From Candidatus Bruticola papionis (GTDB taxonomy: Bacteria > Vulcanimicrobiota > Xenobia > Xenobiales > Xenobiaceae), in contig DHKB01000034.1 in NCBI GenBank assembly GCA_002407045.1, positions 37,786 to 101,785 of the forward strand: DNA of 64,000 nucleotides. Reading direction: 5' to 3'. The position numbers and the translations under genes are program-made. The notes beneath the pieces are model-generated. The model was not told the origin of the DNA and ran no database searches. It was given only the letters and a program-made list of their open reading frames with translations. Below, one piece after another: positions 1 through 37,813 of the stretch (the stretch's first letter is position 1; every line of letters starts with the position of its first letter).

Positions 1-3
1 GAA

Positions 4-3000
4 TTGGGCGAGATAGCTTTTGAGCCAGCTCACGTAGCTACGCCTAATGCCGCCAAACCGGCAGCGGCTTCGGTTACTGAGCCAACTGCCACAACTAAAC
101 CGGTGAACGCTAGCGCTAATGGTGAAGCGGTTGCCCATGCTCCCATCTTTGCCTCTTCGCCAGCTCCGATAGCAGCTTCCAATAATGCTGCCAAACTTCA
201 GAAAGGTTCTGCTTCTCAGGCTGTTCCTATGACATACGAAGAACATGAAGCAATGGCTTTGCCCACTGTTGGCGAAATTTCTATGTTGAGCCAAGCTTTC
301 CAGACCATTCAAGCTGGCTTAGAAGCTATGCAAACTTTGCAACAGCAAACAGCCAGCGCCCACTTGCGTTTCTTAGATAGCCAAGTTCAAATTCAGCAAA
401 CCCTGCAAAGCATTATTACCTCTCAACAAAACCTGGCTCAGCTCAGCTTAGGTTCAGGAGCTTTGGCCAATATGCCAGGTTTTGAGCTTAGTTTGCCAGC
501 CATACCTACCGCGCAGCCAACAATAGATAGAGCCTCTTCCGCTCCCGCTGCTCCAATGCAACCTGCTGCCGTCGAGCCGTCCATACCTATTGCTCAAACT
601 ATGGCCGCTTTTTCCACGGCAGAACCTTTGCCTAAGCCTATTTCCGAAGAGAAAATCGCTGTTACCGAGCAAAGTGAATTTAAGCCGAGCTTCACTGCCG
701 CTCCTCAAGAAGCCGCTCAAGGTGGCGATCTTACCGCAGCCATTTTGGGTGTAGTTGCCGAAATGACCGGTTATCCGGCCGATATGCTCAATTTGGATAT
801 GAACTTAGAAACCGATTTGGGCATCGACTCTATTAAACGAGTAGAAATTTTAGCTGCCATTCAAAAGCGCTTCCCCAATGCCCCAGCTATCGCTCCCGAT
901 GAAATCGGTTCTATGCAAACTTTGCGCCAAATTGCCGATAAATTGGTCGCTCCTACAGCAACAGTCAAAGAATCTACCGTTATTCCGACAGCTGATATTA
1001 AGTCTGCTCCCGCAGTCGAAAAGTCTGTAGTTGGCGTGGCTAACCCGGAAAAAGTTTTGCTTGACGTTGTAGCCGAAACAACTGGCTATCCAGTGGAAAC
1101 TTTAAATCTGGACATGGATTTGGAAAACGATTTAGGCGTCGACTCCATTAAGCGCGTAGAAATTTTAGCCGCTATCCAGAAGCAATTGCCCGGCTCAAAC
1201 AGTGTTGCCCCTGACGAAATTGGCTCTCTGCGTACTTTGCGTCAGATTCTTGACAAGCTCGCTCCTACAACTACAGGAGAAGCTAAAGCTGAGCCTATCG
1301 CCATACAAAATGACACTTCAGCTGAAGAAGCCATTATTAAAATTGTGGCTGAAATGACCGGCTATCCGGTAGAAACTTTAAATCTTGATATGGATTTAGA
1401 GAACGACTTGGGTATCGATTCCATTAAGCGTGTAGAAATTCTGGCCGCTGTGCAAAAGCAATTGCCCCAGGCTGGAGCTATAAGTCCCGAAGAAATCGGC
1501 TCTTTGCATACTTTGCGCGACATCGTCAATCGCTTAGGTGCATCAGCTCAGCCTCAAAGCCAGAGTGAAACTAAGGCTAAAGTTTCCCCTGCACCTGAAA
1601 ACCAAGAGCAAGCTGTGCTTCAGATCGTAGCCGATATGACTGGCTATCCTCTGGAAACGCTCAACTTGGACATGGATTTAGAAAACGATTTGGGCATCGA
1701 TTCCATTAAACGTGTGGAAATTTTGGCCGCCATTCAAAAGGTCATTCCCGCCGCTTCTTCCATAGGTCCAGACGAAATAGGCTCTTTACATACCGTACGC
1801 GATATACTTAAGCGTTTAGGTAACGACGATAAGCCTACTCCTCCGACTGACGCTCCCCATAAGGACGATCAAGGCGCAGAGGAAGAAAAAAAAAATGAAG
1901 CTTGCCAGAGCGTAGATTTGCCCACAGAACCTGCGCTGACTTCAAATGACAAAGCTGAACAAAAGGCGACCGAAGTTTCCGTAGCCGACACTAAATTGGA
2001 AGCTGAGGCAACTGCGGTCGCGCAGCCTGTCGACCATGACTCAAATTCAGAAGCAAAAGCTGAGCAGCAGCCTGAAGTAAAAATCGATTTGACAGCCAGC
2101 TTAGCCCCTGACGGTCAGATGCTCAAACGCAGAAAGCTCTACTATAAAGAGTCGCCCGCGCCTAACAAGCCTGTTGAATTAAACACTCAAGGCCTTTATG
2201 TTATTACCGACGACGGTTATATTGCTCCGGCTCTCTGTGCAGCTATGCAACAATTCGGTTTGCAAGCTTGTTTAATTAGTAAAGATCAGCCTTTAACTGA
2301 TCAACAGCTTCGTTTAGCTGACAGATTTGCAGGCTTAATAGCCATCATGCCTAGTTTTCCTCTCTATGAGCATGGAGATCTCTTCTTCAAACGTGGTGTT
2401 GCTGAAGAGGCTTTAAAAGATTGCTTTAAGTTGGTACGTCAACAGTGTCAACTTTGGAAGCAAGTTGGCCAAACGCCCGATTTCTTCCTGACTGTCACTC
2501 GCATGGACGGTCACTTTGGCACTTTTGATGAAGCTAGCAACCCCATAGAAGCTGGCTTACATGGCTTAGCCAAAGTTGTAGCTCAAGAGTATCCTCGCTT
2601 ACGCAGCCGTTCCTTTGATTTTTGCGTAGATACCGATCCCGGCCATATTGCTACTCAGATCTTAGCCGAGCTTATGGTAGATGGTAGTAACGAAGTTGGT
2701 ATCGATCGTCATAACGTGCGTCGTATTCCGGTCTTACGCGAAGAGAAGCTGGACTTAACTAAAGTTAATTTGCCAGCTCCAGGCTCTACCGTTATTGTTA
2801 CTGGTGGAGCCCGCGGCGTGACTGCTGATTGCGCCAAGTTACTGGCCCAGCATTGCAAACTCAACTTTGTATTGGTAGGCCGCTCACCTATTCCCGTGCC
2901 TGAATGGACTCAAACTAAGTCTGCCAAGACGGCTAGAGACTTAAAAACTTTATTGTATCAACAATCGAAACAGAGTGGTAAGAGTCTCTCTCCTAAACAG

Positions 3001-4716
3001 CTTGAAGGCGAATGCCGACGCATCTTAGTCAACCGTGAGATCGCTCAAAATATCAGTGATATCAGAGCTTTAGGTTCACAAGTGGAATATATTTCCTTAG
3101 ACGTACGCGACGATAGTTTAATCGCTCAAGTAGTGGAAGATATTCACCAGCGTTACGGCTCGATCGTTGGTTTAATTCATGGAGCTGGAGTTTTAGCAGA
3201 TCGCTACATTTGCGACAAGACCGACGAGCAATTCAATATGGTCTTTGATACTAAAGTCAATGGCTTATACAATTTCATGCAAGCCTTAAATGATGAGCCT
3301 TTGCAATTTGTACTTACCTTCTCCTCTGTATCTGCCAGATTCGGCCGTCCCGGCCAAGCCGATTATGCTATGGCCAATGAAGTAATGAATAAGTTTACTT
3401 ATGCGGCCAGCAGTTTATATCCCAAAACTCGCTTTAACGCTATGGGCTGGGGTCCTTGGGAAGGTGGTATGGTCGACGAAAGCCTCAAGCGCAAGTTTGA
3501 GCAACTCGGCGTAGAGGTAATTGAACGTGGACGTGGAGCCAGAGCTTTAACAGCCGAAATTTTGGCTGGTCATGAACAAGCTTGCGAACTCATTATGGGC
3601 GCAGGTTTTGACGTACCTCACGAAGACGACGCCTCTTCAGAAACAAAATCAGAAGCCTCACCAGCTTCAGAAGGTAACCAAGAAGTTAGTCCTTTGGCTC
3701 AGTCTTTAGGTTTAGATAAAGATGAAGAAGCTAAGGAGTCAGAGCGCCCTTTTGCGTCGACGGGCCTAAAGCCCGTCCAGTCTCAAAGTCGCGTATCTTT
3801 GGTCGACACAGACGAACTCTCTGCTAATTGGACTAAGCGCAGCAAGGACGATCCTTACAGTAGGACTCTGAATGCGGAGCAATATCCGCTTTTAGAAGAT
3901 CATGTTTTAGGCGGCCATTCCGTTATGCCTACGGCCTTAATGGTCGAATTGGCTGCCCAAGCTTGTCATAAATACTTTCCTCAGTATCGCTTCTTAGGAT
4001 GTGACAATTTGCGGGTACTTAAGCCAGTTACTTTGCCGCGAGGCGAAGAGCATGACGACCCCGCCAAGAACATTGTAGATACAGACATAGCCATCGTTAT
4101 TCAAAAAGTTGAACGTATCGATTCAGAGTTGTTAGTATCTTTTGCTATTGAGCATTACAAACCAAACGCACGTCCCGTCAAATGTGTAGAGGGAACGGCC
4201 GTTTTAACGGCTCAGCCTCAAGCTAAGCCATTAAAAAAGCATAATCGACAGCCACTGGAAGAAAATGGCTATCCTTGCACTATGCCGGAAGCTTACGATA
4301 AGTATTTATTCCACGGCCCTAAGCTGCGAGGCATAAACAAAGTACGTTCTTGTAACAAACATGGGCTGGCCGCCAACGTAGAAGATATGGGCCACGCTTT
4401 GGTAAATCATCCCCAGGATAAGCCTATTACCAATCCGCTTTTCCTTGATTGTGCTTTGCAAAGCGGTTTGTTGTGGAGCGGAGCCGAGTGCGGACTTTGT
4501 TCTTTACCCATGTTTGGCGGCCGCTATCGTCAATACGTAGACAAGTTCCCTGCCAAAGCACAAATATTGCTTTATCCCAAAGAAGTTGGCGAAAGCCAAA
4601 TGTGCGGCGATGTCTTTGTAGTAGACGAAGAAGGCAGAGTTTTAGCTGAGTGGCAAGACGTGCGCTGGGTTATGAGCTCAACCTTGGCCAAGTCTTTTCG
4701 CAGCAATAAGTTATAA
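4..4716 (+). CDS. pfaA: PUFA/polyketide synthase PfaA-like multidomain protein, 5'-truncated at window edge (linker, ACP x4, KR, PKS-type DH); upstream KS-MAT part not in window
   Basis: The frame is open from nt 4 with no real start. Four repeats carry LGIDSIKRVEILAAIQK (phosphopantetheine Ser at nt 829, 1144, 1420, 1702). A Rossmann motif VIVTGGARGVTADCAKLLA and the YAMANEVMN KR signature follow. The C-terminal LLEDHVLGGHSVMPTA matches the HxxxGxxxxP PKS dehydratase motif. Confidence 0.85.
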   Translation: MGEIAFEPAHVATPNAAKPAAASVTEPTATTKPVNASANGEAVAHAPIFASSPAPIAASNNAAKLQKGSASQAVPMTYEEHEAMALPTVGEISMLSQAFQTIQAGLEAMQTLQQQTASAHLRFLDSQVQIQQTLQSIITSQQNLAQLSLGSGALANMPGFELSLPAIPTAQPTIDRASSAPAAPMQPAAVEPSIPIAQTMAAFSTAEPLPKPISEEKIAVTEQSEFKPSFTAAPQEAAQGGDLTAAILGVVAEMTGYPADMLNLDMNLETDLGIDSIKRVEILAAIQKRFPNAPAIAPDEIGSMQTLRQIADKLVAPTATVKESTVIPTADIKSAPAVEKSVVGVANPEKVLLDVVAETTGYPVETLNLDMDLENDLGVDSIKRVEILAAIQKQLPGSNSVAPDEIGSLRTLRQILDKLAPTTTGEAKAEPIAIQNDTSAEEAIIKIVAEMTGYPVETLNLDMDLENDLGIDSIKRVEILAAVQKQLPQAGAISPEEIGSLHTLRDIVNRLGASAQPQSQSETKAKVSPAPENQEQAVLQIVADMTGYPLETLNLDMDLENDLGIDSIKRVEILAAIQKVIPAASSIGPDEIGSLHTVRDILKRLGNDDKPTPPTDAPHKDDQGAEEEKKNEACQSVDLPTEPALTSNDKAEQKATEVSVADTKLEAEATAVAQPVDHDSNSEAKAEQQPEVKIDLTASLAPDGQMLKRRKLYYKESPAPNKPVELNTQGLYVITDDGYIAPALCAAMQQFGLQACLISKDQPLTDQQLRLADRFAGLIAIMPSFPLYEHGDLFFKRGVAEEALKDCFKLVRQQCQLWKQVGQTPDFFLTVTRMDGHFGTFDEASNPIEAGLHGLAKVVAQEYPRLRSRSFDFCVDTDPGHIATQILAELMVDGSNEVGIDRHNVRRIPVLREEKLDLTKVNLPAPGSTVIVTGGARGVTADCAKLLAQHCKLNFVLVGRSPIPVPEWTQTKSAKTARDLKTLLYQQSKQSGKSLSPKQLEGECRRILVNREIAQNISDIRALGSQVEYISLDVRDDSLIAQVVEDIHQRYGSIVGLIHGAGVLADRYICDKTDEQFNMVFDTKVNGLYNFMQALNDEPLQFVLTFSSVSARFGRPGQADYAMANEVMNKFTYAASSLYPKTRFNAMGWGPWEGGMVDESLKRKFEQLGVEVIERGRGARALTAEILAGHEQACELIMGAGFDVPHEDDASSETKSEASPASEGNQEVSPLAQSLGLDKDEEAKESERPFASTGLKPVQSQSRVSLVDTDELSANWTKRSKDDPYSRTLNAEQYPLLEDHVLGGHSVMPTALMVELAAQACHKYFPQYRFLGCDNLRVLKPVTLPRGEEHDDPAKNIVDTDIAIVIQKVERIDSELLVSFAIEHYKPNARPVKCVEGTAVLTAQPQAKPLKKHNRQPLEENGYPCTMPEAYDKYLFHGPKLRGINKVRSCNKHGLAANVEDMGHALVNHPQDKPITNPLFLDCALQSGLLWSGAECGLCSLPMFGGRYRQYVDKFPAKAQILLYPKEVGESQMCGDVFVVDEEGRVLAEWQDVRWVMSSTLAKSFRSNKL
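720..1830 (+). repeat. Tandem array of 4 ACP-domain coding repeats (period ~280-315 nt) inside the pfaA-like gene
   Basis: Near-identical nucleotide stretches gatttgggcatcgactc/attaa(a/g)cg(a/t)gtagaaatttt(a/g)gc recur at ~814, 1129, 1405 and 1687. The encoded peptides are DLGIDSIKRVEILAA. Confidence 0.85.
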
Positions 4717-4757: not shown

Positions 4758-7700
4758 ATGGCAGCACGTAATACAGATATAGCCATAGTCGGTCTGGGAC
4801 TCCACTTTCCCGGTGCCGCTAATGTCCAAGAATATTGGCAGCGTCTCAAAGAAGCTAAAGATCTTTCCGAGCAACCGGGGCCAGATCGTTGGCCCATAGA
4901 TGCCGAAAAGCACCTTAGTAAAACTCCCCAAGACGACGCTTTGCGCTGCTTGCGTGGTTATTATTTGCACAATCTTCCCACTCCTGAGGAAGAAGGCTTG
5001 CCACAAGGGATTGATCCTGTATTTACCTTAGGCTTGAACACAGCCAAACAAGCGCTCAAGGATTGCTCAAATATAAACAAGCAGCGCACCGGTGTAGTGA
5101 TGGCGGCTATAGCTTTACCCACCGACACTACTTCTGCTCTTAGCGAAGACATTTTGGGCGGTGACTTTGAAACGCGTTTACGCCAAAAGTTGGTTGCCGC
5201 ATTTCCAGAAAAAAGCGCTGCTTTCAATTTGTCAACTGTCGATAAACAAACTGAACCAGCCAATTTGCCAACCACTGCAGCTAACACTGCTCCAGTAGGT
5301 TTGCCAGCTCAGTTAATTGCCAATAAATTGGGCTTAGGCTTGGGAGGTTACACTTTAGACGCAGCTTGTGCCAGCTCTTTAGTGGCCGTTGCCTTAGCTT
5401 GCGATGAGTTGCGAGCCCACCGAGCCGACGCCATGTTAGCCGGAGGTCTTTCCCGTCCCGATTGTCTATATACTCAAATGGGCTTTTCAGCTTTGCGAGC
5501 TCTCTCACCAAGCGGCGTATGTTCTCCTTTTGATGCTAAAGCCGACGGCCTGATGGTAGGCGAAGGCTGTGGCTTGGTAATACTCAAGCGCTTGGAAGAC
5601 GCCGTAGCTCAGAGTGATAAAATTTACGGCGTTATTAAAAGCGTCGGTCTATCAAACGATATTGAAGGTAGCTTAGTGGCACCCTCAAGTGAAGGCCAAA
5701 TCCGTAGCTTGCGCCAAGCTTACGCCGCTTGCGGTTTGCAACCTTGGGATATTGATCTAATCGAATGTCATGGTACTGGCACTCCTGTAGGAGATAAAGT
5801 TGAGTTTGACAGTTTGCAAACACTCTGGCAAGAAGCCCCTCAGGGCACTTTATGCCAATTGCGTTCTGTTAAATCTATGATTGGCCATTTGCTTACCGCT
5901 GCTGGTTCGGCCGGACTAATTAGAGTATTGCTCAATATGCAAAATGGCTTGATTACTCCTCAGGTAAATTTTGCAACTCCCGGTTTACCTTTGGCAGAAA
6001 GTCATTTCCGCGTAGAAAATAAAGAAGTAGCTTGGCTTAAGCACCCTAACCGTCCTCGCCGTGCAGCGGTCAGCGGTTTTGGCTTTGGCGGCATCAACGC
6101 TCACCTTATTGTGGAAGAATACGATTCATCTACTTCAGATACAAGCGTCAAAAGTTTAGATGAAAGCCTTATCAACGACAACTCCGAACAAAAAGCTGAA
6201 AGTATAGCTATTGTCGGCTTAGCTTGCCATTTTGGCTCTTTAGATAATACTGATAAATTTAAAAAGGCTATCTTTAACGGACTTTCAGCTTTAACCGATT
6301 TGCCTGAAAATCGTTGGCAAGGCTTAGGCGAAAGTGAAAACGCAAAAACAAATGCTAAGCAAGCCTATATTGATAAAGTATCTATACCTTTAGGCAAATT
6401 CCGTATTCCGCCTACGGATATTCCCAATATTTTGCCTCAACAATCTTTGTTGTTGAATGTGGCTTCTCAGGCTATGGCCGACGCCAGACAGCCTCTTCGC
6501 GAACGGCGCAATGAGGCGGCTGCCTTTATAGGTATAGCTTTAGACTTAAATTCCACCAACTTTAACTTGCGTTGGCAATTGGAAAAGAAAGCCCAGCAAC
6601 TTGCTAAAGCTTTGGATTTAACGGCCGAAGAAGCGAAGTCTTGGCTTAAAGAGCTTAAGAATGAAATTTCTAAGCCTTTAGACTCTACCCGTACTATGGG
6701 AGCTTTAGGTAGTATCGCGGCCAGCCGTGCCGCTCGCGAATTTCAATTCGGAGGCTGTTCTTTTACAGTTTCAGCCCAAGAAGTTTCTGGCTTTACAGCT
6801 TTGAAACTTGGTGTACAAGCTTTACAGAGAGGCGACTTGAATCTAGCTCTGGTCGGAGCTATCGATTTGCAAGGAGACGTTCGTCAAGCTCACAACCACT
6901 TAGATGGCCAAGTTGACGGTTATGGAGAAGGTGCTTGTTGTTTAGTCTTAAAGCGTTTGAGCGACGCCAAGCGCGATCATGATCATATTTACTGTTTAAT
7001 ACAAGGCTTAGGCCAAGCAGAGAATAGCCAAAATGAAGCTGAAGAGCAGCCAGCAACTCAAACAGCCTTGGAGCAAGCTTGCCATCAAGCCAAGATAGAG
7101 CCTAAAAAGATCAGCTACTTGGAATTTAGCAATGGCAACTTACTGACTAATTCAAGCCAATCCCAAGTTTTAGAACAATTACGCCACAAACTCGATCAAG
7201 GAGAGCTTCCTCTTTCTGTTGGTACAGTCAGCGATATAGTTGGTAAATGTGGGGCCGCTTCAGCCTTAGCTTCCATAGCCAAAGCAGCTTTAAGTTTGGA
7301 TCGCCATATTTTGCCTGGCACTCCAGAATATATTAAGCCTATTGCTGAATTGAACGCTTCAGAGAGCCGTTTATGTGTTCATTGTAAGCCTTCTTTCTGG
7401 TTCCGCAATCGCGCCGAAGGGCCGCGCCGCGCTGCCGTAATTAGCACAGCTTATCCTGGTCATGTTTGTGCTTCTATTTTGGAAGAAGCGCCAACCGATA
7501 ATTATGTAAGCCAGAATGAAGCTATTGAACCGGCCAAATCAGTTATCTTCGCTTCTTTAGCCGCTCAACCTCAAGAATTAAAAGCCAAATTGCAAGAATT
7601 GCAACAAGAAGCCAACTTAGCTAGAGAAAGCGGAGTGTCAGCTGCCAAAGCTTTGCTCAAGTTGGGTGCTTCTTGGTGGCAACGTCAAGATATGAAGCAA

Positions 7701-10700
7701 AAGTTGGCTATGGCTTTTGTTATCGACTTAACTACCGAAGAGCCCTGGAATGAGTTTCAAATTCGCCTCAAGCTGGCCATAAAGCATTTAGAAGATTATG
7801 CCGACAAAGCTCTAGCCAATCACTCTATTTTCTATACTCCAGAGCCTCTGGCCGAAAATGGCAAAGTAGCTTTCGTTTATCCCGGTTCAGGAGCCAATTT
7901 CCTCGGTTTGGGACGCGAGCTGGCTTTGCAATTCCCGGCCCTTATGGATCGCTTCGATAATGAAAATCTTTACATGGCCGACGAATTTATGGCTCGTTGG
8001 AACCAGCCTTACCGCTTAAATTGGGAGGAAGGTTGGCAACATGATTCTCTGAAAAATTTAGCTTCTGACACCCACAAGATGATGTTTAGCCAAGTTACCT
8101 TTGCTATGCTTTCTACTGATGTAGTCCGTTATTTAGGTATCGAGCCTCAAGCGGCTATCGGCTATAGCTTAGGAGAATCAGCTGCTCTATTTGCCCTCAG
8201 AGCTTGGCCAGAACGCGACTTAATGTATAAACGCATGGAAAGTTCTGACTTATTCCGCAAGCAACTTTCCGGTCCGTGTCTAGCTGCCAGACGGGCTTGG
8301 AATATTCCTTCGGGCGCTCCTTTTGAATGGACTGTAGGCCTTATTAGAGTGCCTGCTTCTCAAGTAAAAGAAGCGATTAAAACAAATTCCAAAGTGCGCT
8401 TGCTAATAGTCAATACCGATAATGAATGCGTTATTGGTGGCACACGTGAAGCCATTAGCGCCATTTGCGCTCAATTGCATACTAAAGCAATTTTAGTAAG
8501 TGGCGTTGATACGGTACATTGCGATTGTCTTGATCCAGTAGCTAAAGAATATTGGGATATGCACCATCTTCCTTGCACTCCTCCCCAGGGTATAGACTTC
8601 TATAGTGGCTACTATCATCGTTCTTACGGTTTGACTTCGGAAAAAATTGCTGACTCTATTGTTGCCCACGGTCGTTTTGGCTTTGATTACACGAAAACTA
8701 TTCGCCAAGCTTGGCAAGATGGCGTGCGCCTTTTCTTAGAAATGGGGCCTGGCACAGCTTGCAGCCGTATGATTAACAATATCTTGGCTGACAAGCCCCA
8801 CTTTGCTATCAGCTTAAGCAATAGAGGCAAAGCCGAATTGGCTTCTTTAGAATGTCTGTTGGCTGGAGCCATAAGTCATGGCTTACGTCCCGACTTAGGC
8901 AAACTTTTCCCAGCGGAGCTTATGCCTCAAAACGATGCAGAAGCCAAAACTATTGATATTTATTTGGGCAGACCTGCTTTTAACCCACCAGTTCCCCAAT
9001 CAACCCAAGCTAGTTTGCCCACTCCAAACAAAATAGAGAACTCGCCTTCTTCTAAGCCAGTTGCTCTTACCACGCCTTCCCAGACGATCTTGAAAACCGC
9101 GTCGGTTCCTCAGGAGCCTGTCATTCCTACCGAGGAAAGAAGAGCTGTAAATATGAGTATTCCTCAATATAAAAACCAACCATCAGTTTCTGTAGCTGCT
9201 ACCCAAGCAACTACCACCCCAAAGATCAGCAGCCAAGTTGCTCCCGCTTCTTCTCCTACGCCAATGCAACAACTGGAGCAAATTTTAGTTGAAGTTTCCC
9301 AATCTTCACAACAAAACCACTCCAAATGGCTGGAATTTGTTAAAGACAGCTCTCAAGCAATAGCTTCTTTAATGAATCGTCAAAGCGTTTTAATTCAGCA
9401 ATTATCGACTGTGCCCGGAGCCACTTTGCCAAGTGAGATTCGTTTGCCAGATCATACACAAGCGGTTCCACAATTACGACAAAATAGCAATATCGAAGCA
9501 CATGCTTATACAACAAAACTTCATGGCGTCGAATTTACTACTTCCGATGGCTATGTATGTGGAGGCAAACCTTCCTTAGCTCCCAAAAATCAAAAAGTAT
9601 TTTTAGATAGAGATGAATGTCTGGAATTTGCTATAGGTAAAATAGGCAAAGTTTTAGGTGATAAGTTCGCTCCTATCGATAATTACTCTACACGTGTACG
9701 CTTGCCAGCCGAACCGCTTATGCTTGTCGATCGTATTATTTCCGTAGAAGGAGAGCCGCTATCTTTGGGTTCAGGCCGCGTAGTTACCGAACACGACGTA
9801 GTGCCTGGTATGTGGTATTTGGATGGCAACAGAGCTCCGGTCTTTATTTCTGTGGAAGCTGGACAAGCCGACCTTTTCCTTTGCAGCTGGTTAGGAATTG
9901 ACTTTAAAGCTCAGGGCAAACGCGTCTACCGTCTCTTAGATGCCAATGTAACTTTCCACCGTGGCTTGCCTCAGCCTGGCGAAACTATCCATTATGATAT
10001 TCGCATTAAACGCTTTATCAACCAAGGAGACACGTGGCTCTTCTTCTTCGAATACGAAGGCACTATAAATAATCAAATCTTCTTAACTATGCGTGATGGT
10101 TGCGCCGGTTTCTTCACTCCGCAAGAGATACGCAATAATGGCGGTTTAGTCTTAACTGAAGAGAATTTGCGTCCTAAACAGGGCAAAAAAGATCCCCACA
10201 TGAAAGACTTAGTGCCTCTAAGCGCCAGCAGTTACAACTTTGAACAAGTTGAAGCTTTGCGTCGTGGTGATTTAGAAGCTTGTTTCGGTGAAGATTTTGC
10301 CGGATTGGCTTTAAAAAATCCGGTCAGTTTGCCTTCCTCCAATTTGTTGCGTTTAATTCATCGTATTCCCGAATGCGATCCTTTCGGTGGACGTTGGGGC
10401 TTAGGTAAAGTTGTAGCCGAAGCTGACGTTCATCCCGAAGACTGGTACTTAACTTGCCACTTTGTTGACGATATGGTAATGCCTGGCACCTTAATGTATG
10501 AGTGCTGTGCTCATGCCCTGCGTTTCTTGCTGGCTCGCTTAGGCTGGGTTGGCGAAAAAGACAAAATTGCTTACGAACCTGTCGTGGGCGTAAAGGCTGT
10601 CCTTAAATGTCGCGGTCCTGTCTTACAAAGCACCAAAACTGTGCGCTATCAAGTAGAGATCAAAGAGATAGGTTATAACCCTCAGCCTTATGTAATAGCT

Positions 10701-11984
10701 GATGCTATTATGTACGCCGACAATAAGCGCGTAGTAGGTTTTGAGAATGTCTCAATGCAACTTACTGGTACGACAGGACAGGAATTGGAAGAGCTGTGGC
10801 ATTCTCGCCAACCTAAAACCAAAGCGGCTATCTCTTCCCAGCATTTAGGCGATCCTATCAAGCCTGGCATCTTCAACGAAGAACAATTTATGCAATTTGC
10901 AATTGGTCGTCCTTCTCTGGCTTTTGGCCCTGAATTTGCCAAGTTTGATTCACGCTTTATCGCTCGCTTGCCTGGCCCGCCTTATCAGTTTGTCAGTCGT
11001 ATTGTCAGTGCCGATCATCCTTTCCTTAAGGCTGTACCTGGAGGTTGGGTTGAAGCTCAGTACGATATTCCTGTCGACGCTTGGTACTTTAAAGCTGGCC
11101 ACACTGGACGTATGCCATTCTGCGTTCTCAACGAAATAGCTTTGCAAGTTTGCGGCTGGGTATCAAGTTATGCCGGTTCTTCCATGCACAGTGAAGAAAA
11201 TTTGCATTATCGCAACTTGGGCGGTTCTTCTCGTCTCTATGAAGAGATTACACCTCAAACTGGTACTGTTACCATTAAAGTACGCATGACCAAATCATCA
11301 GAAGCTGGTGGCTTGATTATTCAAGACTTTGATATGTGGCTTGGTCAGCAAGGACGTACTATTTACGAAGGCCAAACTACCTTTGGATTCTTTACCGAAA
11401 AGGCTTTAGCCGATCAAGTGGGCGTACGTGGAGCTGAAAAACGCATTTGGCATCACCAACAAGAAGAGCCTTGGGAAACTTTGCCTAGGCTGGCCCCCTT
11501 AACTCCCGATGATGGTAGCAATACCCAGAAGTGCTCTTTGGCAATGCCTGGTAAAGCTTTACTCATGCTCGATGAATACGCTTGGTATCCACAAGGCGGT
11601 CACCACGGCTTGGGAGCTATTGTTGGCAAAAAGAAGATCGATCCTCAAGAATGGTTCTTCAAAGCCCATTTCTTCCAGGATCCAGTTATGCCAGGCTCTT
11701 TAGGTTTGGAGGCTTTTATCCAAGCTCTTAAAGCGGCTGCTCTAAAGTTGTGGCCCAATCTTAAGGACAGCCATCATTTTTCAGCCATTTTGCCTAATAG
11801 CACTCATAAGTGGCTCTATCGAGGCCAAGTAATTCAAGCCAACAAAGAGACAACTGTCAGGGCGGAGATTAAAGAGATAGGCCAAGGGCCCAATCCTTAT
11901 ATCAAAGCCGATGGTTTCTTGCAAGTTGACGGAAAAGTTATCTACGAACTTAAGGATTTTGGCTTAGCTCTCTTGGCTAATTGA
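4758..11984 (+). CDS. pfaC: PUFA synthase PfaC/PfaB-like fusion: KS - chain-length-factor (KS-like, no active Cys) - acyltransferase - tandem FabA-like dehydratases
   Basis: KS motifs DAACASSL (Cys at 5367-5369), ECHGTGT and GHLLTAAG. A second KS-like half starts at IAIVGLACHFGS. The AT carries VAFVYPGSGANFLGLGREL and the GYSLGESAA GxSxG (Ser at 8166-8168). Two FabA-type hotdog pairs carry HFVDDMVMPGTLMYE and FFQDPVMPGSLGLEAF. The protein is 2408 aa. Confidence 0.85.
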   Translation: MAARNTDIAIVGLGLHFPGAANVQEYWQRLKEAKDLSEQPGPDRWPIDAEKHLSKTPQDDALRCLRGYYLHNLPTPEEEGLPQGIDPVFTLGLNTAKQALKDCSNINKQRTGVVMAAIALPTDTTSALSEDILGGDFETRLRQKLVAAFPEKSAAFNLSTVDKQTEPANLPTTAANTAPVGLPAQLIANKLGLGLGGYTLDAACASSLVAVALACDELRAHRADAMLAGGLSRPDCLYTQMGFSALRALSPSGVCSPFDAKADGLMVGEGCGLVILKRLEDAVAQSDKIYGVIKSVGLSNDIEGSLVAPSSEGQIRSLRQAYAACGLQPWDIDLIECHGTGTPVGDKVEFDSLQTLWQEAPQGTLCQLRSVKSMIGHLLTAAGSAGLIRVLLNMQNGLITPQVNFATPGLPLAESHFRVENKEVAWLKHPNRPRRAAVSGFGFGGINAHLIVEEYDSSTSDTSVKSLDESLINDNSEQKAESIAIVGLACHFGSLDNTDKFKKAIFNGLSALTDLPENRWQGLGESENAKTNAKQAYIDKVSIPLGKFRIPPTDIPNILPQQSLLLNVASQAMADARQPLRERRNEAAAFIGIALDLNSTNFNLRWQLEKKAQQLAKALDLTAEEAKSWLKELKNEISKPLDSTRTMGALGSIAASRAAREFQFGGCSFTVSAQEVSGFTALKLGVQALQRGDLNLALVGAIDLQGDVRQAHNHLDGQVDGYGEGACCLVLKRLSDAKRDHDHIYCLIQGLGQAENSQNEAEEQPATQTALEQACHQAKIEPKKISYLEFSNGNLLTNSSQSQVLEQLRHKLDQGELPLSVGTVSDIVGKCGAASALASIAKAALSLDRHILPGTPEYIKPIAELNASESRLCVHCKPSFWFRNRAEGPRRAAVISTAYPGHVCASILEEAPTDNYVSQNEAIEPAKSVIFASLAAQPQELKAKLQELQQEANLARESGVSAAKALLKLGASWWQRQDMKQKLAMAFVIDLTTEEPWNEFQIRLKLAIKHLEDYADKALANHSIFYTPEPLAENGKVAFVYPGSGANFLGLGRELALQFPALMDRFDNENLYMADEFMARWNQPYRLNWEEGWQHDSLKNLASDTHKMMFSQVTFAMLSTDVVRYLGIEPQAAIGYSLGESAALFALRAWPERDLMYKRMESSDLFRKQLSGPCLAARRAWNIPSGAPFEWTVGLIRVPASQVKEAIKTNSKVRLLIVNTDNECVIGGTREAISAICAQLHTKAILVSGVDTVHCDCLDPVAKEYWDMHHLPCTPPQGIDFYSGYYHRSYGLTSEKIADSIVAHGRFGFDYTKTIRQAWQDGVRLFLEMGPGTACSRMINNILADKPHFAISLSNRGKAELASLECLLAGAISHGLRPDLGKLFPAELMPQNDAEAKTIDIYLGRPAFNPPVPQSTQASLPTPNKIENSPSSKPVALTTPSQTILKTASVPQEPVIPTEERRAVNMSIPQYKNQPSVSVAATQATTTPKISSQVAPASSPTPMQQLEQILVEVSQSSQQNHSKWLEFVKDSSQAIASLMNRQSVLIQQLSTVPGATLPSEIRLPDHTQAVPQLRQNSNIEAHAYTTKLHGVEFTTSDGYVCGGKPSLAPKNQKVFLDRDECLEFAIGKIGKVLGDKFAPIDNYSTRVRLPAEPLMLVDRIISVEGEPLSLGSGRVVTEHDVVPGMWYLDGNRAPVFISVEAGQADLFLCSWLGIDFKAQGKRVYRLLDANVTFHRGLPQPGETIHYDIRIKRFINQGDTWLFFFEYEGTINNQIFLTMRDGCAGFFTPQEIRNNGGLVLTEENLRPKQGKKDPHMKDLVPLSASSYNFEQVEALRRGDLEACFGEDFAGLALKNPVSLPSSNLLRLIHRIPECDPFGGRWGLGKVVAEADVHPEDWYLTCHFVDDMVMPGTLMYECCAHALRFLLARLGWVGEKDKIAYEPVVGVKAVLKCRGPVLQSTKTVRYQVEIKEIGYNPQPYVIADAIMYADNKRVVGFENVSMQLTGTTGQELEELWHSRQPKTKAAISSQHLGDPIKPGIFNEEQFMQFAIGRPSLAFGPEFAKFDSRFIARLPGPPYQFVSRIVSADHPFLKAVPGGWVEAQYDIPVDAWYFKAGHTGRMPFCVLNEIALQVCGWVSSYAGSSMHSEENLHYRNLGGSSRLYEEITPQTGTVTIKVRMTKSSEAGGLIIQDFDMWLGQQGRTIYEGQTTFGFFTEKALADQVGVRGAEKRIWHHQQEEPWETLPRLAPLTPDDGSNTQKCSLAMPGKALLMLDEYAWYPQGGHHGLGAIVGKKKIDPQEWFFKAHFFQDPVMPGSLGLEAFIQALKAAALKLWPNLKDSHHFSAILPNSTHKWLYRGQVIQANKETTVRAEIKEIGQGPNPYIKADGFLQVDGKVIYELKDFGLALLAN

Positions 11985-12006
11985 CGCTTGATGTCAATAT
12001 TTTCAT

Positions 12007-12068
12007 AAAAAACTGCCCATTCTAGCTCAATACTTAATGTATCAACAGCTTGAGAGGGCAGTTTTTTT
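12007..12068 (+). terminator. Putative rho-independent terminator of pfa operon (8-bp GC stem AACTGCCC/GGGCAGTT, ~37-nt loop, T7 tail)
   Basis: Inverted repeat aactgccc...gggcagtt is followed by ttttttt, 23 nt after the ORF2 stop. The loop is unusually long. Confidence 0.45.
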
Positions 12069-12169
12069 ACTTTAGGCACTATTTTGCCAAAAATGTTCAC
12101 ATTAAAGCGCCCCATACTTTTAATATGTATGCTATCATGGACGGAGACATTTTTAACGGAGGTTCTAGT

Positions 12170-13024
12170 ATGTTCACTCCTGGCATTCCTTTCGGAGGCC
12201 CGGGCCACTTCGGCGGCCCCAGTCCTTTTGGAGGCCCTCTGGGCCCAGGCTCGATATTCGCCCCCGGTATGGGTGCAACCTTAATGATGGGCCTCTCCGG
12301 CTTAGCTGGAGCAGTAGTTGGCGTGCCCATTATGGCTGCAGCATTAGATAGTTGCATTCCTATTGATGGAGCTCAAAATCCCGCTGCTGGTTTCGGCATG
12401 GGCGGTTTTGCTGGTTCTATCGTAGGTCAAGGTATCGGTGGTATGCTTGGTACCAGCCTCGGCATGAAATTGGGCGGTCCCTTAGGTATGATGGGCGGCG
12501 GTGTGCTCGGTTCCATTTTGGGTGGTGGCATTGGCTCTAAAGTCGGTAGTACCATCGATAAGAGAAAAATGGCTAAGCAAGCTCAAGCCGCTCAAAGACA
12601 TAACGGCTTCAGTAGCGCCGAAGCTTCCAATTTATACAGCAACTTAGGCAAAGCCGCTGTGGGCGGAGCCGCAGTTGGCTTAGGTGCTGCCGCAGTTTCT
12701 AGTGCTGCTTCTAAAGCGGCAGAAAAAACTGTCAGCGCCAATTTATTCAGCCCCTTCCCCACCCCTCCCGGCGGTCGTCCTGGCGACTTATTCCCGCCGC
12801 CTCCTCCACGTGGAGGCTTATTTGGCGGCTTCCCTCCACCACCACCTGGTGGTCCGTTTGGCGGTCCTCCTCGCCACGATCCCTTCGGCGGTCCTCGTCA
12901 CCATGGTCCTTGGGGTCCTGGTCCTGGTGGCCCTGGTGGTCCCGGCGGACCTCATCACCGCGATCCTTGGGGACCTGGTCCTGGTGGCCCTGGCGGTCCC
13001 GGTGGACCTCCTCCCGGATGGTAG
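12170..13024 (+). CDS. Gly/Pro-rich low-complexity protein with glycine-zipper-like central region and tandem C-terminal HxxPWGPGPGGPGGPGGP repeats; hypothetical
   Basis: The ORF is open from 12050. The ATG at 12170 has GGAGG 8 nt upstream. The central region has GxxxG-rich hydrophobic segments (GMLGTSLGMKLGGPLGMMGGGVLGSILGGGIG). The C-terminus carries a direct repeat. Confidence 0.55.
   Translation: MFTPGIPFGGPGHFGGPSPFGGPLGPGSIFAPGMGATLMMGLSGLAGAVVGVPIMAAALDSCIPIDGAQNPAAGFGMGGFAGSIVGQGIGGMLGTSLGMKLGGPLGMMGGGVLGSILGGGIGSKVGSTIDKRKMAKQAQAAQRHNGFSSAEASNLYSNLGKAAVGGAAVGLGAAAVSSAASKAAEKTVSANLFSPFPTPPGGRPGDLFPPPPPRGGLFGGFPPPPPGGPFGGPPRHDPFGGPRHHGPWGPGPGGPGGPGGPHHRDPWGPGPGGPGGPGGPPPGW
12898..13010 (+). 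repeat. Tandem ~57-nt direct repeat (x2) encoding H(H)(R)(D)PWGPGPGGPGGPGGP
   Basis: catggtccttggggtcctggtcctggtggccctggtggtcccggcggacct is followed by caccgcgatccttggggacctggtcctggtggccctggcggtcccggtggacct. Confidence 0.8.
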
Positions 13025-13083
13025 TTTGTGAATAATAGCTCAAATTAGAGTTGTATCGATTATAATTTGAGCTAGCGGAATGC

Positions 13084-13136
13084 AAAAAAAGCGCCCTTGG
13101 CAATATCAAAAAGGTATTAGCCAGGAGCGCTTTTCT
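13084..13136. terminator. Bidirectional terminator-like hairpin between convergent genes (A7 - GCGCCCTTGGC ... GCCAGGAGCGC - T4)
   Basis: Imperfect 11-bp GC-rich inverted repeat flanked by an A-run and a T-run. It is preceded by an 11-bp perfect AT-rich IR at 13037-13073. Confidence 0.45.
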
Positions 13137-13162
13137 GTTATGTGTTAATGCGCTGCGTGAAG

Positions 13163-14089
13163 TCAGCCTTGTAAACTTTTCTCCTTGCGGCTCTTAGCAG
13201 TCAAAGACACAGTAAAAACGCCAGCCATAACTAAAAATACTCCCAAATAGCCACGGCCAGACATCGTTTCATGTAAGAAGATAAAAGCAAAAATAGCCGC
13301 AAATACCGGTTCTAAAGAGAAAAGCACTCCAGTATGCTCCGGAGTAGTATATTTTTGAGCTACAGGCTGAGCCACAAAGGCAAACGCACTACCAAACACA
13401 GCCAATCCCAAAACAGCCACCCAGCCAATAGTGCTTGAAGGCAAAGAGGGAGTTTCAAAAAGCAAAGCGCTTATAGAAGAATAAAGACCAGCGAAACCGA
13501 TTTGCCAAACGCCTAAAAGTAAACCGTCATCCTGTTTACTAAGCTTATCAGTTAAAATAATATAAGCGGCATAAATAACGGCTCCAATAAAACAAAGTAT
13601 ATCTCCGCTATGGAATACCAACGATTGTTGCAAAGTCAAGCAACTAATACCCACAGTTGTCAAAATTGTGCCTATTACTACCGAAAGATCGGGCAATTTT
13701 CTAACGAGAAAAGCGTGAAAGATCGGCACCATTACTACAGCAGTACTTGTCAAAAAGCCAGCGTTAGATGCTGTGGTTGTCTTTAATCCCAAAATAAGCA
13801 AGGCACACATACCGTAGGTAAGTATGCCTAATAGAGCTCCATTGCCAATAGTACGCCAAGTATGATTAAGGTGCTTAAAAAATATTAAAGCTACAATTAA
13901 AAAAGCAATACAAAAGCGTAAGGCCAAAACGGTAAATGGAGGTAATACCCCCAAGCCCAATTTCATAAAAAGATACGAAGTTCCCCAAGCCATAGATATA
14001 CAGATCATAGTTAAATCAGCGGTGCGCTGATTCCAAAAGGTGCCTTTTTTCATTGTTTCGGTACGAAATTCTTTAGTATTAGAAATCAT
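13163..14089 (-). CDS. DMT-superfamily (EamA-like) transporter, ~10 TM helices
   Basis: The protein is 308 aa and is uniformly hydrophobic, with paired EamA-like halves. Helices are Gly/Ala-rich with periodic charged loops. Confidence 0.6.
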   Translation of the reverse strand: MISNTKEFRTETMKKGTFWNQRTADLTMICISMAWGTSYLFMKLGLGVLPPFTVLALRFCIAFLIVALIFFKHLNHTWRTIGNGALLGILTYGMCALLILGLKTTTASNAGFLTSTAVVMVPIFHAFLVRKLPDLSVVIGTILTTVGISCLTLQQSLVFHSGDILCFIGAVIYAAYIILTDKLSKQDDGLLLGVWQIGFAGLYSSISALLFETPSLPSSTIGWVAVLGLAVFGSAFAFVAQPVAQKYTTPEHTGVLFSLEPVFAAIFAFIFLHETMSGRGYLGVFLVMAGVFTVSLTAKSRKEKSLQG

Positions 14090-14227
14090 ATTAAGATCTA
14101 AAAAGTGAATTGTCGGATATTAAGAAGCGGCCCCAATTATAGCCAAACTTAGCAAAAAGGCAAGCAAAAAAATCCAATTTCTAGCCAAGGGGGACAAACT
14201 GTCCTCCTAACGAAAAGGCCGCGCGTT

Positions 14228-14914
14228 ATGACAGTTAATTCACATAAACCTTTCAAAGCTTGTATTTTTGATATGGACGGAGTGCTTTTAGACTCCGAAC
14301 CTTTTTGGCGCCAAGCCGAACGCGAAATTTTTGCTACCGTCGGTCTCAATCTCACTGAAGAAGATTGCATGGAAACTATGGGAGTGCGTATAGATGAATT
14401 AGTCGTCTACCGCCATAGTCAGAAACCGTGGGCTACTCCAAGCTGTACTGAAATAGCCAACAAAATTCAATTGCGCGTAGCTGAATTAGTTAGAGAAAAG
14501 GGTACCCTACTGCCCGGGGTGCTGGAAGCTTTGCGCTTTTTAAAAGAAGAGCAAAAATTGCCTTTAGCTTTAGCTTCATCTTCTTCACGTATGCTCATTG
14601 AGGCTGTTTTAGAAGCTCTCAAACTTCAGGGCTTCTTTGAAATAACATGTTCAGCCGAAAAAGAGCCCTATGGTAAACCCCATCCGGCTGTATATATAAA
14701 TACTGCAAAATTACTTAACGTCGAACCTATCGACTGCTTGGCCATAGAAGATTCCATAAATGGAGTAATTGCTGCTAAGGCTGCGCGTATGGCTTGTGTC
14801 GCTATTCCAGAAAAAGCCTTACGCAACAATAAAAAATTTGCTATTGCCGATTTGCAATTAGACAGCCTCTTACAATTGCCTGAGCATTACCAGCAACTTT
14901 TGGCAGAGCGTTAA
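14228..14914 (+). CDS. HAD-superfamily hydrolase, subfamily IA (sugar-phosphatase / beta-phosphoglucomutase-like)
   Basis: Motif I is CIFDMDGVLLDSEP (DxDG). The text contains AIEDSINGVIAAKAA with an ED motif IV-like element. The protein is 228 aa. Confidence 0.8.
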   Translation: MTVNSHKPFKACIFDMDGVLLDSEPFWRQAEREIFATVGLNLTEEDCMETMGVRIDELVVYRHSQKPWATPSCTEIANKIQLRVAELVREKGTLLPGVLEALRFLKEEQKLPLALASSSSRMLIEAVLEALKLQGFFEITCSAEKEPYGKPHPAVYINTAKLLNVEPIDCLAIEDSINGVIAAKAARMACVAIPEKALRNNKKFAIADLQLDSLLQLPEHYQQLLAER

Positions 14915-36531: not shown

Positions 36532-37542
36532 TTAGAAAGAAGGAGCGAACTCATTCATAGGATCAGACTCTTTTTCTTCAGCAGGAGCTGCCGGTTTAGC
36601 TTGAGTCTCGGCAGGAGCCGGAGTGGCTTTAACTTTGGGTTGCTCAGCAGGCTTTTCAACTTTGGGCGGATCATGCATAATGAGAGCTTTACAATCGACC
36701 GGCACTCTATTGTAGTTGAACCAAATAGGGTTGTCAGGAGTGAAAGTATAGCTTTGTCCAGCTTCCAAAATACCTACATCTTTGCTCCAAGTGTTTACTA
36801 CAGTTCCATCATAAAGCACGGCATTGACGTTAAACTGTACGCCACTGAGAGAAGTATTGCCAGTATTGGTAATTTTGGCACTATTAAAGTGGACTTCAGC
36901 AGTATAGGCACCACCGGCATCGTTATTAAACCAATCAATACTATTGACAGCAATAGGAGATTGAGAATTACTGCCATCAGTTTCGATTTTGCCCTGGGCG
37001 TTAAGTTTGTACTTTACTTCACCACCGCTTTTTTTAGCTGAATCAACATTTTTACCAGCACCTTTGGAAACGCTGGAACGCGGAGTAGCTGCAGCTACTT
37101 GAGCTTTGGTAACAGGGACGATTAAATCGATACTGCCAATAGCTGAGGAAACTGTATATTTTAAACCAAAATATTTAGCGAAAGTCTGTACATCAACAGT
37201 TAAACGGCCAGCCCTAAGAGCAGTAGGCAGAACAAATTCTTTGCCGCCAAAAACTACCTTGCTAATATCCGAAGTAAGGAGAGGACCATTATCTTCTCCT
37301 TTAAAACTCTTCTTAGATTCTGTGGCAGTATAAACGTACAACTTGCTGCCATCCAAATTCCAAGTGTAATTTAAGGACTTAAGTAAATCGTCCAAATTTG
37401 CTTTGACAGTTTCTCCGGAAATAACGGCACTGCCTTTAAATGGACGGTTGCGTACATAGAAATCGTAATCAGCGGCACTTACTGAAGCGGCAGAGCCCAG
37501 TAAAATAGCAGCCGTCAAAAAGCCATAGAAAAATTTGTTCAT
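36532..37542 (-). CDS. Secreted hypothetical protein with Pro/Ala/Lys-rich C-terminal tail
   Basis: The ATG at 37542 has GGAGG 7 nt upstream. The signal peptide is MNKFFYGFLTAAILLGSAASVSA|ADY. Confidence 0.55.
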   Translation of the reverse strand: MNKFFYGFLTAAILLGSAASVSAADYDFYVRNRPFKGSAVISGETVKANLDDLLKSLNYTWNLDGSKLYVYTATESKKSFKGEDNGPLLTSDISKVVFGGKEFVLPTALRAGRLTVDVQTFAKYFGLKYTVSSAIGSIDLIVPVTKAQVAAATPRSSVSKGAGKNVDSAKKSGGEVKYKLNAQGKIETDGSNSQSPIAVNSIDWFNNDAGGAYTAEVHFNSAKITNTGNTSLSGVQFNVNAVLYDGTVVNTWSKDVGILEAGQSYTFTPDNPIWFNYNRVPVDCKALIMHDPPKVEKPAEQPKVKATPAPAETQAKPAAPAEEKESDPMNEFAPSF

Positions 37543-37813
37543 TCTTAGTCCTCCAAAAATATGAGAAACTTCTTCCTGCCGAATTGCACTTTTTAGCGAA
37601 CGGCACTGCTTCAAAGGTAGCAAAAACAAAGTGCTATAAAATGCGCTGCCCTTTCAGCAATTCAGCCGAACCACCTCAGCATCTCTGAAGTTTGAAATTC
37701 AACATAGACAAAGAATATCCGCCCGCCACAGCTCACAAACAATGTAGTCAAAAGAGAGCCCAATTTGACAGCAAATAAAAACGCTGCTGAAAATAGGGCT
37801 CCAAGCCAGCGAA

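Follow-up and report, generated by a model that had tools for sequence, protein, structure and literature searches.

The 64,000-nucleotide stretch of contig DHKB01000034.1 analysed here (the window) carries, at 4758–11984 on the forward strand, an uninterrupted open reading frame (ORF) with an ATG start that encodes a protein of 2408 amino acids (aa). The protein holds a ketosynthase (KS), a chain length factor (CLF), an acyltransferase (AT) and two dehydratases (DH) in this order, an arrangement known as the pfaBC fusion. Judging from the sequence, we consider it very likely that this ORF is an intact pfaBC gene and closes a three-gene pfaD-pfaA-pfaBC operon for an iterative polyunsaturated fatty acid (PUFA)-type "secondary lipid" synthase of an uncultured, gut-associated UBP9/Xenobia bacterium. 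This assessment covers the identity and the enzymology of the synthase and excludes its product. The domain set of a PUFA synthase is complete over three co-oriented, tightly spaced genes, and the catalytic residues are intact.

The pfaBC gene and its domains

Nineteen contigs from several different samples encode the identical 2408-aa protein, and the six places listed come from ENA and JGI assemblies. The 90%-identity cluster of the protein has 102 members; of the 15 listed, 14 are 2408 aa long and the remaining one is a fragment of 490 aa. Collinearity with pfaBC homologues (37–92% identity) spans the entire length. Residue conservation is given below for an alignment of 73 full-length relatives.

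The active ketosynthase (aa 6–471, 4773–6170) matches PF00109 (223 bits) and PF02801 (142 bits), both far over the cut-offs, as well as PF16197. Its catalytic triad, which consists of Cys204 (DAACAS), His338 (HGTGT) and His377 (GHL), is kept in all 73 relatives. The top match to a solved structure for the N-terminal part (aa 7–710) is 6riw (E = 1e-108), and it reaches into the CLF. This entry was deposited as ORF10, and we take it to be the KS-CLF didomain of Moritella marina PfaC. The following domain (aa ~483–910, 6204–7487) has a KS fold without the catalytic triad. It is homologous to the first KS by BLASTP (E = 2e-17), and a second ketoacyl-synt domain is also present in the precomputed Pfam matches of the protein. 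Because Cys204, His338 and His377 are replaced by Ala, Ser/Asn and Lys, respectively, this second KS-fold domain was designated as the CLF.

The PfaB-type AT domain is located at aa 1033–1352 (7854–8813). The top solved structure for this region is the AT domain of Shewanella baltica PfaB (9ry8; phmmer E = 5e-23, chain residues 357–691). The GYSLGE motif, encoded at 8160–8177, contains the catalytic Ser1137, which forms a dyad with His1254 (DTVH1254). The serine is preceded by Tyr1136, Asn1219 is present, and Ser1162 occupies the position of the malonyl-binding Arg. Among the 73 relatives, Ser and His are invariant, Tyr is kept in 69 and Asn in 71, and the column equivalent to the Arg varies. 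According to a 2026 paper on the PfaB structure (PMC12895367), PfaB-type ATs differ from malonyl transferases in having a Tyr instead of the His before the catalytic Ser. They use a Ser-His dyad and have lost the Gln/Arg pair that binds the malonyl carboxylate, and an Asn or Gln is hydrogen-bonded to the Tyr; PfaB moves long-chain acyl groups and sets the final product (PMC12895367). The malonyl acyltransferase (MAT) of the adjoining PfaA carries the malonyl-type GHSYG motif. Based on the Tyr-Ser pair, the Ser-His dyad and the absence of the Arg, as compared with GHSYG in the PfaA MAT, the embedded AT is predicted to be the PfaB equivalent and not a second malonyl loader.

A linker rich in Ser, Pro, Gln and Thr (aa ~1353–1615, 8814–9602) connects the AT to the first DH unit. 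It is poorly conserved, with next to no conserved columns in the consensus of the relatives. The two FabA-type units that follow are homologous to each other (E = 4e-30), and each consists of a pseudo hot-dog followed by a catalytic hot-dog with an HFxxDxVMPG motif, at aa 1901 and 2304, respectively. PF07977 matches in four stretches over both units, with 265.8 bits in total. In the first, a dehydratase/isomerase unit (aa 1616–2002, 9603–10763), His1901 is kept in all 73 relatives and Glu1915 in 72, and NCBIfam FabA models match aa 1852–2001. In the second, a dehydratase unit (aa 2039–2405, 10872–11972; best PF07977 stretch at aa 2264–2398), His2304 and Glu2318 are kept in 70 relatives, the other three having gaps at these positions.

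Only 7 residues separate F2401, the last invariant residue of the family, from the end of the protein at aa 2408. There is therefore no C-terminal 1-acylglycerol-3-phosphate acyltransferase (AGPAT) domain, and PF01553 gave no match in the protein. The original prediction, made from the letters of this DNA, had described a KS-CLF-AT-DH-DH order in a 2408-aa ORF, with an intact AT serine in GYSLGE between the CLF and the DHs and no AGPAT after the second DH. The order was confirmed to the base by Pfam and NCBIfam annotation and by the structure matches, and the statements on the serine and on the C-terminus also hold.

The operon and its surroundings

The window begins within pfaA, of which the last 1571 of 2537 codons lie at 1–4716 on the forward strand, with Pfam matches to PP-binding (four times), KR, PKS_DH_N and PS-DH. 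This part contains four tandem acyl carrier proteins (ACPs; ~745–1827), a ketoreductase (KR; ~2788–3462) and a polyketide synthase (PKS)-type DH (~3844–4680). The KS-MAT part falls upstream of the window start and was read on locus L001, which differs from the window at 22 of 21,984 bases. The full PfaA on L001 is 2537 aa long, has the order KS-MAT(GHSYG)-4 ACP-KR-DH and matches TIGR02813 (omega_3_PfaA) with 1675 bits (cut-off, 1010). The enoyl reductase (ER) PfaD has 537 aa and matches TIGR02814 with 607 bits (cut-off, 449). On L001 and L087, where the operon is complete, pfaD is followed after 12 nt by pfaA, which is followed after 41 nt by pfaBC.

Two flanks were added to the window, 10 kb upstream of pfaD (L087) and ~7.6 kb past the window end (L090), and were checked via the precomputed Pfam families of the called genes. 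Every gene in the 10 kb upstream of pfaD is on the opposite strand and apparently unrelated. These genes encode an Exo_endo_phos-family protein, a protein with a weak HTH_1 (LysR-type) match, a nitroreductase, a 5'-3' exonuclease and others. On the 3' side, pfaBC is followed by a conserved Gly/Pro-rich ORF and by genes for an EamA transporter, a HAD phosphatase, Fe-S proteins, an ATP-grasp protein and an M3 peptidase, and then by housekeeping genes.

The ORF directly 3' of pfaBC (12170–13024 on the forward strand; the longest ORF starts at 12050) encodes a 284-aa protein with glycine-zipper-like hydrophobic Gly-rich segments and a repetitive tail rich in Pro, Gly and His. It has no Pfam or NCBIfam match. 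The protein is kept at the same position in both Candidatus Bruticola loci (L056, 17758–18579; L007, 17744–18574) and is not conserved in the more distant UBA6111 and L036 loci. A scan for terminators and promoters over ~11800–14300 gave no decisive signal on whether this ORF is co-transcribed with the operon. The ORF at 12050–13024 was considered as a phosphopantetheinyl transferase (PPTase) or thioesterase gene and rejected, as it encodes a low-complexity Gly/Pro-rich protein without a family match. A divergent 296-aa gene upstream of pfaD was likewise rejected as a PPTase candidate. Over the stretch that begins 10 kb before pfaD and ends ~60 kb past pfaBC, we found no thioesterase, no PKS or nonribosomal peptide synthetase (NRPS) and no AGPAT fusion.

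The sole PlsC-like gene of the window, for a PlsC-type acyltransferase, is located 27 kb off in a cmk-plsC-der row (39290–40141, reverse strand), and plsY (57977–58585, reverse strand) also stands in a housekeeping context. A hidden AGPAT, sought both in the pfaBC protein and among these genes, was rejected. The PlsC-type protein and PlsY, neither linked nor fused to the pfa operon, are acyltransferases of housekeeping phospholipid synthesis, and any Pfa product would need to be accepted by them.

Several other genes of the window are recorded here for their own sake. At 25472–26506, the reverse strand encodes a protein of 344 aa that carries an ADP-ribosyltransferase exoenzyme/toxin domain (PF03496, E = 1.8e-19). 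Beside it are three ORFs with type-IV-pilin-like N-terminal methylation motifs (22353–23375, 23375–23917 and 24491–25147) and an 801-aa ORF without a family match (19930–22335). A 1284-aa protein (44817–48671, reverse strand) consists of a Ser/Thr protein kinase fused to a very long TPR array. Genes for M16 (insulinase-type) peptidases form two separate adjacent pairs within 30 kb (30341–33247 and 58692–61583, both on the reverse strand). Four ORFs of 265–493 aa have no Pfam match at E <= 1e-4 (27002–28483 and 28740–30206 on the forward strand, 36532–37629 and 55985–56782 on the reverse strand), and tRNA-Glu(CTC) adjoins tRNA-Gln(CTG) at 61748–61905 (reverse strand).

Relatives of pfaBC and the Xenobia clade

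The architecture had been called unusual in the original prediction, and this judgement does not stand. The pfaB-pfaC fusion was defined in 2011 by Shulse and Allen, whose typing is based on the PfaA KS domain, as pfaBC (KS-CLF-AT-DH2) in Types C, D, H and I (PMC3098273). Its holders include Desulfatibacillum (Type C), Psychroflexus (Type D), Agrobacterium vitis and Saccharopolyspora (Type H), and Geobacter, Desulfuromonas, Pelobacter and Gemmata (Type I) (PMC3098273). Expression of the Aureispira marina Type D enzyme in Escherichia coli yields arachidonic acid (Ujihara 2014, as summarised in the review PMC4882568), and "pfaBC" is a routine term in a 2026 paper (PMC13291983).

In a protein database search with the pfaBC protein, 7763 of the 8000 scored candidates matched at E <= 0.001, and the 120 best clusters were all 2267–2604 aa long. 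A scan of species-representative genomes gave at least 552 confirmed relatives, which were found through the DH motifs and may include unfused PfaC proteins. Among the best 80 of these, the match starts at about residues 1–8 (at 91 and 105 in two cases) and runs to about residue 2405; one match ends at query residue 2325, at a contig end. In 73 of these 80 relatives, one reading frame of at least 2100 aa contains the match. The best 80 come from Desulfobacterota, Planctomycetota (including the cultured Limnoglobus roseus and Gemmata algarum), Gemmatimonadota, Acidobacteriota, Verrucomicrobiota, Gammaproteobacteria, Elusimicrobiota, Hydrogenedentota, Nitrospirales, Ozemobacteraceae, a Candidatus Avigastranaerophilus metagenome-assembled genome (MAG) and Myxococcaceae. 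Because the fusion was named in 2011 and is present in many bacterial phyla, the KS-CLF-AT-DH-DH protein of the window is an ordinary new member of the known pfaBC family.

The nearest named pfaBC proteins (69–70% identity) are those of Candidatus Bruticola MAGs, which belong to the class Xenobia of the phylum Vulcanimicrobiota/Eremiobacterota. The 90% cluster of the protein includes "bacterium UBP9_UBA11836", and other members of the clade are rumen MAGs and UBP9_UBA6111. Because synteny between the window and the Candidatus Bruticola locus L056 holds from pfaD past the M3 peptidase gene, at 70% protein identity, the operon appears to be vertically inherited within this family. In a neighbour-joining tree of the 73 full-length proteins, the Xenobia sequences (window, L007, L056, L009, L010, L036 and L044) are monophyletic. 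In this tree, which was midpoint-rooted and contained no Type A, C, D or L references, they form a long branch of their own among ole-linked lineages of Desulfobacterota and Planctomycetota. A literature search on Pfa or PUFA synthases in Xenobia, UBP9, Eremiobacterota or gut MAGs gave nothing specific.

The ole genes and a PPTase gene were sought by tblastn in the window and 86 loci with proteins of the Geomonas locus L046, where the order is pfaD-pfaA-pfaBC-oleA-oleB-oleC-oleD-PPTase. No ole gene was found in any locus of the Xenobia clade, including three loci with 10 kb of downstream flank (Bruticola, UBA6111 and L036) and the window with 52 kb. The PPTase query likewise gave no match in the clade. 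With the added flanks, the ole-free region around the operon extends from 10 kb upstream of pfaD to ~60 kb downstream of pfaBC. This state is not unique to Xenobia, because eight relatives elsewhere (L012, L017, L019, L028, L034, L039, L061 and L080; 4–10 kb of downstream flank) likewise have no ole genes following pfaBC. They belong to Desulfococcaceae, Verrucomicrobiales, Brocadiia, Planctomycetales, Thermodesulfobacteriota and others. One of them, L061 (Planctomycetales), is together with L045, the downstream flank of which is only 2.8 kb, the closest relative of the window outside Xenobia. A further arrangement is seen in L071 (25020–27192), the Candidatus Avigastranaerophilus MAG, in which a fused pfaBC is followed ~8 kb downstream by oleC and oleD. 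Because the Geomonas queries found no oleA or oleB match in L071, the genes between pfaBC and oleC/oleD may differ from the usual oleABCD row. The name of its host suggests another gut-associated lineage.

Mechanism, product and known systems

PUFA synthases extend the chain iteratively from malonyl-ACP on tandem ACPs. A FabA-type 2,3-isomerisation keeps cis double bonds, PfaD reduces enoyl intermediates in trans, and a PfaB-type AT handles the long chain late. In the synthase of the window, the GHSYG malonyl transferase of PfaA would load malonyl units onto its four tandem ACPs, and the chain would be extended by the PfaA KS and the KS-CLF pair of PfaBC. The keto group would be reduced by the KR, and dehydration would be carried out by the PKS-type DH of PfaA and the two FabA-type units of PfaBC. 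The latter could also isomerise the trans-2 to the cis-3 double bond, leaving cis double bonds in the chain, and PfaD would reduce the remaining enoyl intermediates. Based on its Tyr-Ser pair, Ser-His dyad and lack of the Arg, the embedded AT would act on the long acyl chain late in the synthesis or release it, rather than load malonate.

The product is probably a methylene-interrupted polyenoyl chain, although our confidence here is clearly lower than that in the identity of the genes; chain length and degree of unsaturation are not readable from the sequence. The original prediction had cautiously named a PUFA or another secondary lipid as the product, and this can be kept as worded. Given that no ole gene is near the operon in the clade, it is quite conceivable, if not something on which we would rely, that the chain is not turned into an olefin but stays a fatty acyl group, either free or bound in the membrane.

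Several points weigh against this reading of the operon. The AT scored below the curated cut-offs of both PF00698 (21.3 bits against 32.7) and TIGR02816 (pfaB_fam; 76.7 bits against 144.3). The latter match covers model positions 175–484 of 534 only and leaves the N-terminal part of the model unmatched, and thus corresponds to the AT half. The assignment of the domain therefore rests on the match to the PfaB structure 9ry8 and on the motifs. The region at ~7850–8750 had been marked beforehand as one that hidden Markov models might show not to be an acyltransferase, and the 9ry8 match and the invariant Ser and His rule this out despite the sub-threshold scores. The ACPs need a PPTase, and none was detected: there is no ACPS-family match among the window ORFs of at least 150 aa, no tblastn match to the Geomonas PPTase in the window or in L001–L010, and no PPTase gene in the 10 kb upstream of pfaD or in the ~7.6 kb past the window end. 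In Moritella marina and in the myxobacterial clusters the PPTase gene is unlinked (review PMC4882568), and that for the ACPs of this synthase may be unlinked to the operon as well. The placement of the clade comes from the reference-poor, midpoint-rooted tree described above, and the product named for this synthase is a prediction from the genes. Finally, ole genes are present in 47 of the 55 relatives outside Xenobia that have at least 3 kb of downstream flank, and in 44 of these oleA is within 1.5 kb of the pfaBC stop, which is the olefin-linked layout of Type I.

The last point bears on the strongest alternative, in which the enzyme belongs to a Type I olefin pathway as in Geobacter and Geomonas. 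In that case, OleABCD enzymes with genes at another place in the Xenobia genome would join the polyenoyl products head-to-head into a long polyunsaturated hydrocarbon, for example C31:9. Because most of the relatives outside Xenobia are coupled to oleABCD, with the Geomonas order in L046 as an example, an olefin fate via unlinked ole genes is possible. Shulse and Allen proposed that Type I clusters supply the precursors of the C31:9 polyolefin of Geobacter bemidjiensis, and noted that ole genes can be unlinked from the pfa cluster (PMC3098273). Against this, no ole homologue was found in the window, in L001–L006, in the Bruticola, UBA6111 and L036 loci or in the two added flanks. The ole-free state is common to the whole monophyletic Xenobia clade, and the eight ole-free relatives outside Xenobia are in the same condition. 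We regard the olefin pathway as a serious but rather unlikely alternative.

It is less probable still that the product is a secondary lipid of a non-polyunsaturated kind, such as a long alkyl chain that is saturated, mono-unsaturated or hydroxylated, as in the heterocyst glycolipid, phenolic lipid and zeamine/chitinimine polyamine systems. Many pfa-like types have products that are non-PUFA or unknown (PMC3098273; PMC13291983), and the sequence leaves room for this, as the degree of unsaturation cannot be read from it. However, the catalytic His and Glu are kept in both FabA-type units. The window and the checked flanks also lack PKS/NRPS, type III PKS, glycosyltransferase, aminotransferase and thioester reductase genes, which accompany the known non-PUFA pfa-like systems. 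The closest characterised layouts (Types D and I) yield arachidonic acid/eicosapentaenoic acid (EPA) or polyene precursors (PMC3098273; PMC4882568). The chance that the long ORF is an assembly or sequencing artefact (such as the frameshift fusing two genes against which the original prediction had warned) or a pseudogene uniting separate pfaC- and pfaB-like genes is negligible, as no point in its favour was found and it is ruled out by the identical product on 19 contigs and the 102-member cluster, with the full-length collinear homologues across many phyla and the conserved catalytic residues of the 73 relatives also standing against it.

Returning to the PUFA-type synthase, its architecture in itself brings nothing new; it extends the known pfaD-pfaA-pfaBC family to the uncultured, animal-associated class Xenobia. 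The sole aspect that could repay attention is the ole-free, host-associated context: the synthase is conserved and syntenic in the Xenobia clade, yet stands without the oleABCD row seen downstream of it in most relatives. If the genome is truly without ole genes, the clade would be a natural case for what Type-I-like Pfa synthases make alone, and would also bear on whether gut anaerobes make PUFA-like lipids. A tentative and rather doubtful extension is that Xenobia of the animal gut and rumen inherited a Type-I-like Pfa synthase uncoupled from the Ole pathway, with which they make free or membrane-bound PUFA de novo under anoxic and warm conditions. If true, mammalian hosts would harbour bacteria that supply PUFA-like lipids, and Pfa synthases would have a role unrelated to cold or pressure adaptation.

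In the Shewanella and Moritella systems (Types A and B), the AT is a separate protein, PfaB, with its own pseudo-KS, in contrast to the AT embedded at aa 1033–1352 in the protein of the window, and pfaD is the last gene there and the first here. The embedded AT nevertheless shares the Tyr-Ser pair, the Ser-His dyad and the absence of the Arg with S. baltica PfaB (9ry8). Asn1219 is found as in docosahexaenoic acid (DHA)-type PfaB and malonyl transferases, whereas EPA-type PfaB has a Gln. In Schizochytrium, subunit B has the order KS-CLF-AT-ER, in which the AT directly follows the KS-CLF as it does here; its DH domains are on another subunit and its ER domains are fused, in contrast to the separate ER protein PfaD here. 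Part of the Schizochytrium layout is covered by the Type E description in PMC3098273.

The myxobacterial Pfa1-Pfa2-Pfa3 systems (Aetherobacter and Sorangium; Type L) share with the window the order of an ER gene, a pfaA-like gene and a pfaC-like gene. In Aetherobacter Pfa3 the AT is also placed between the CLF and DH domains (PMC4882568), so that the likeness to Pfa3 proposed in the original prediction is borne out by the AT placement and the leading ER gene. Myxobacterial Pfa3 continues into a C-terminal AGPAT domain, whereas the protein of the window stops after the second hot-dog unit. Type D, represented by the arachidonic acid synthase of Aureispira marina and by Psychroflexus torquis, has the AT fused into pfaC as KS-CLF-AT-DH2, as here. 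Among the fused layouts of PMC3098273 and PMC4882568, it is the only one with an experimentally proven PUFA product. Its pfaA is split into KS-AT-ACP and KR genes, in contrast to the single gene for 2537 aa here, and the two are likened by layout and not by sequence.

Type I, known from Geobacter bemidjiensis and other Geobacter, Desulfuromonas, Pelobacter and Gemmata obscuriglobus, closely resembles the operon of the window. Both have the order pfaD-pfaA-pfaBC with an unsplit pfaA, a KS-CLF-AT-DH2 fusion without AGPAT and an association with anaerobes, and the pfaBC protein is collinear over its full length with those of the Geomonas, Geobacter, Gemmata and Limnoglobus loci at 38–44% identity. 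In Type I, oleABCD usually follows, whereas the Xenobia loci have no linked ole genes, and no PPTase gene is near the operon of the window. The Xenobia sequences form a separate clade, and their host belongs to a different phylum (Eremiobacterota/Vulcanimicrobiota, class Xenobia) and to an animal-associated lineage.

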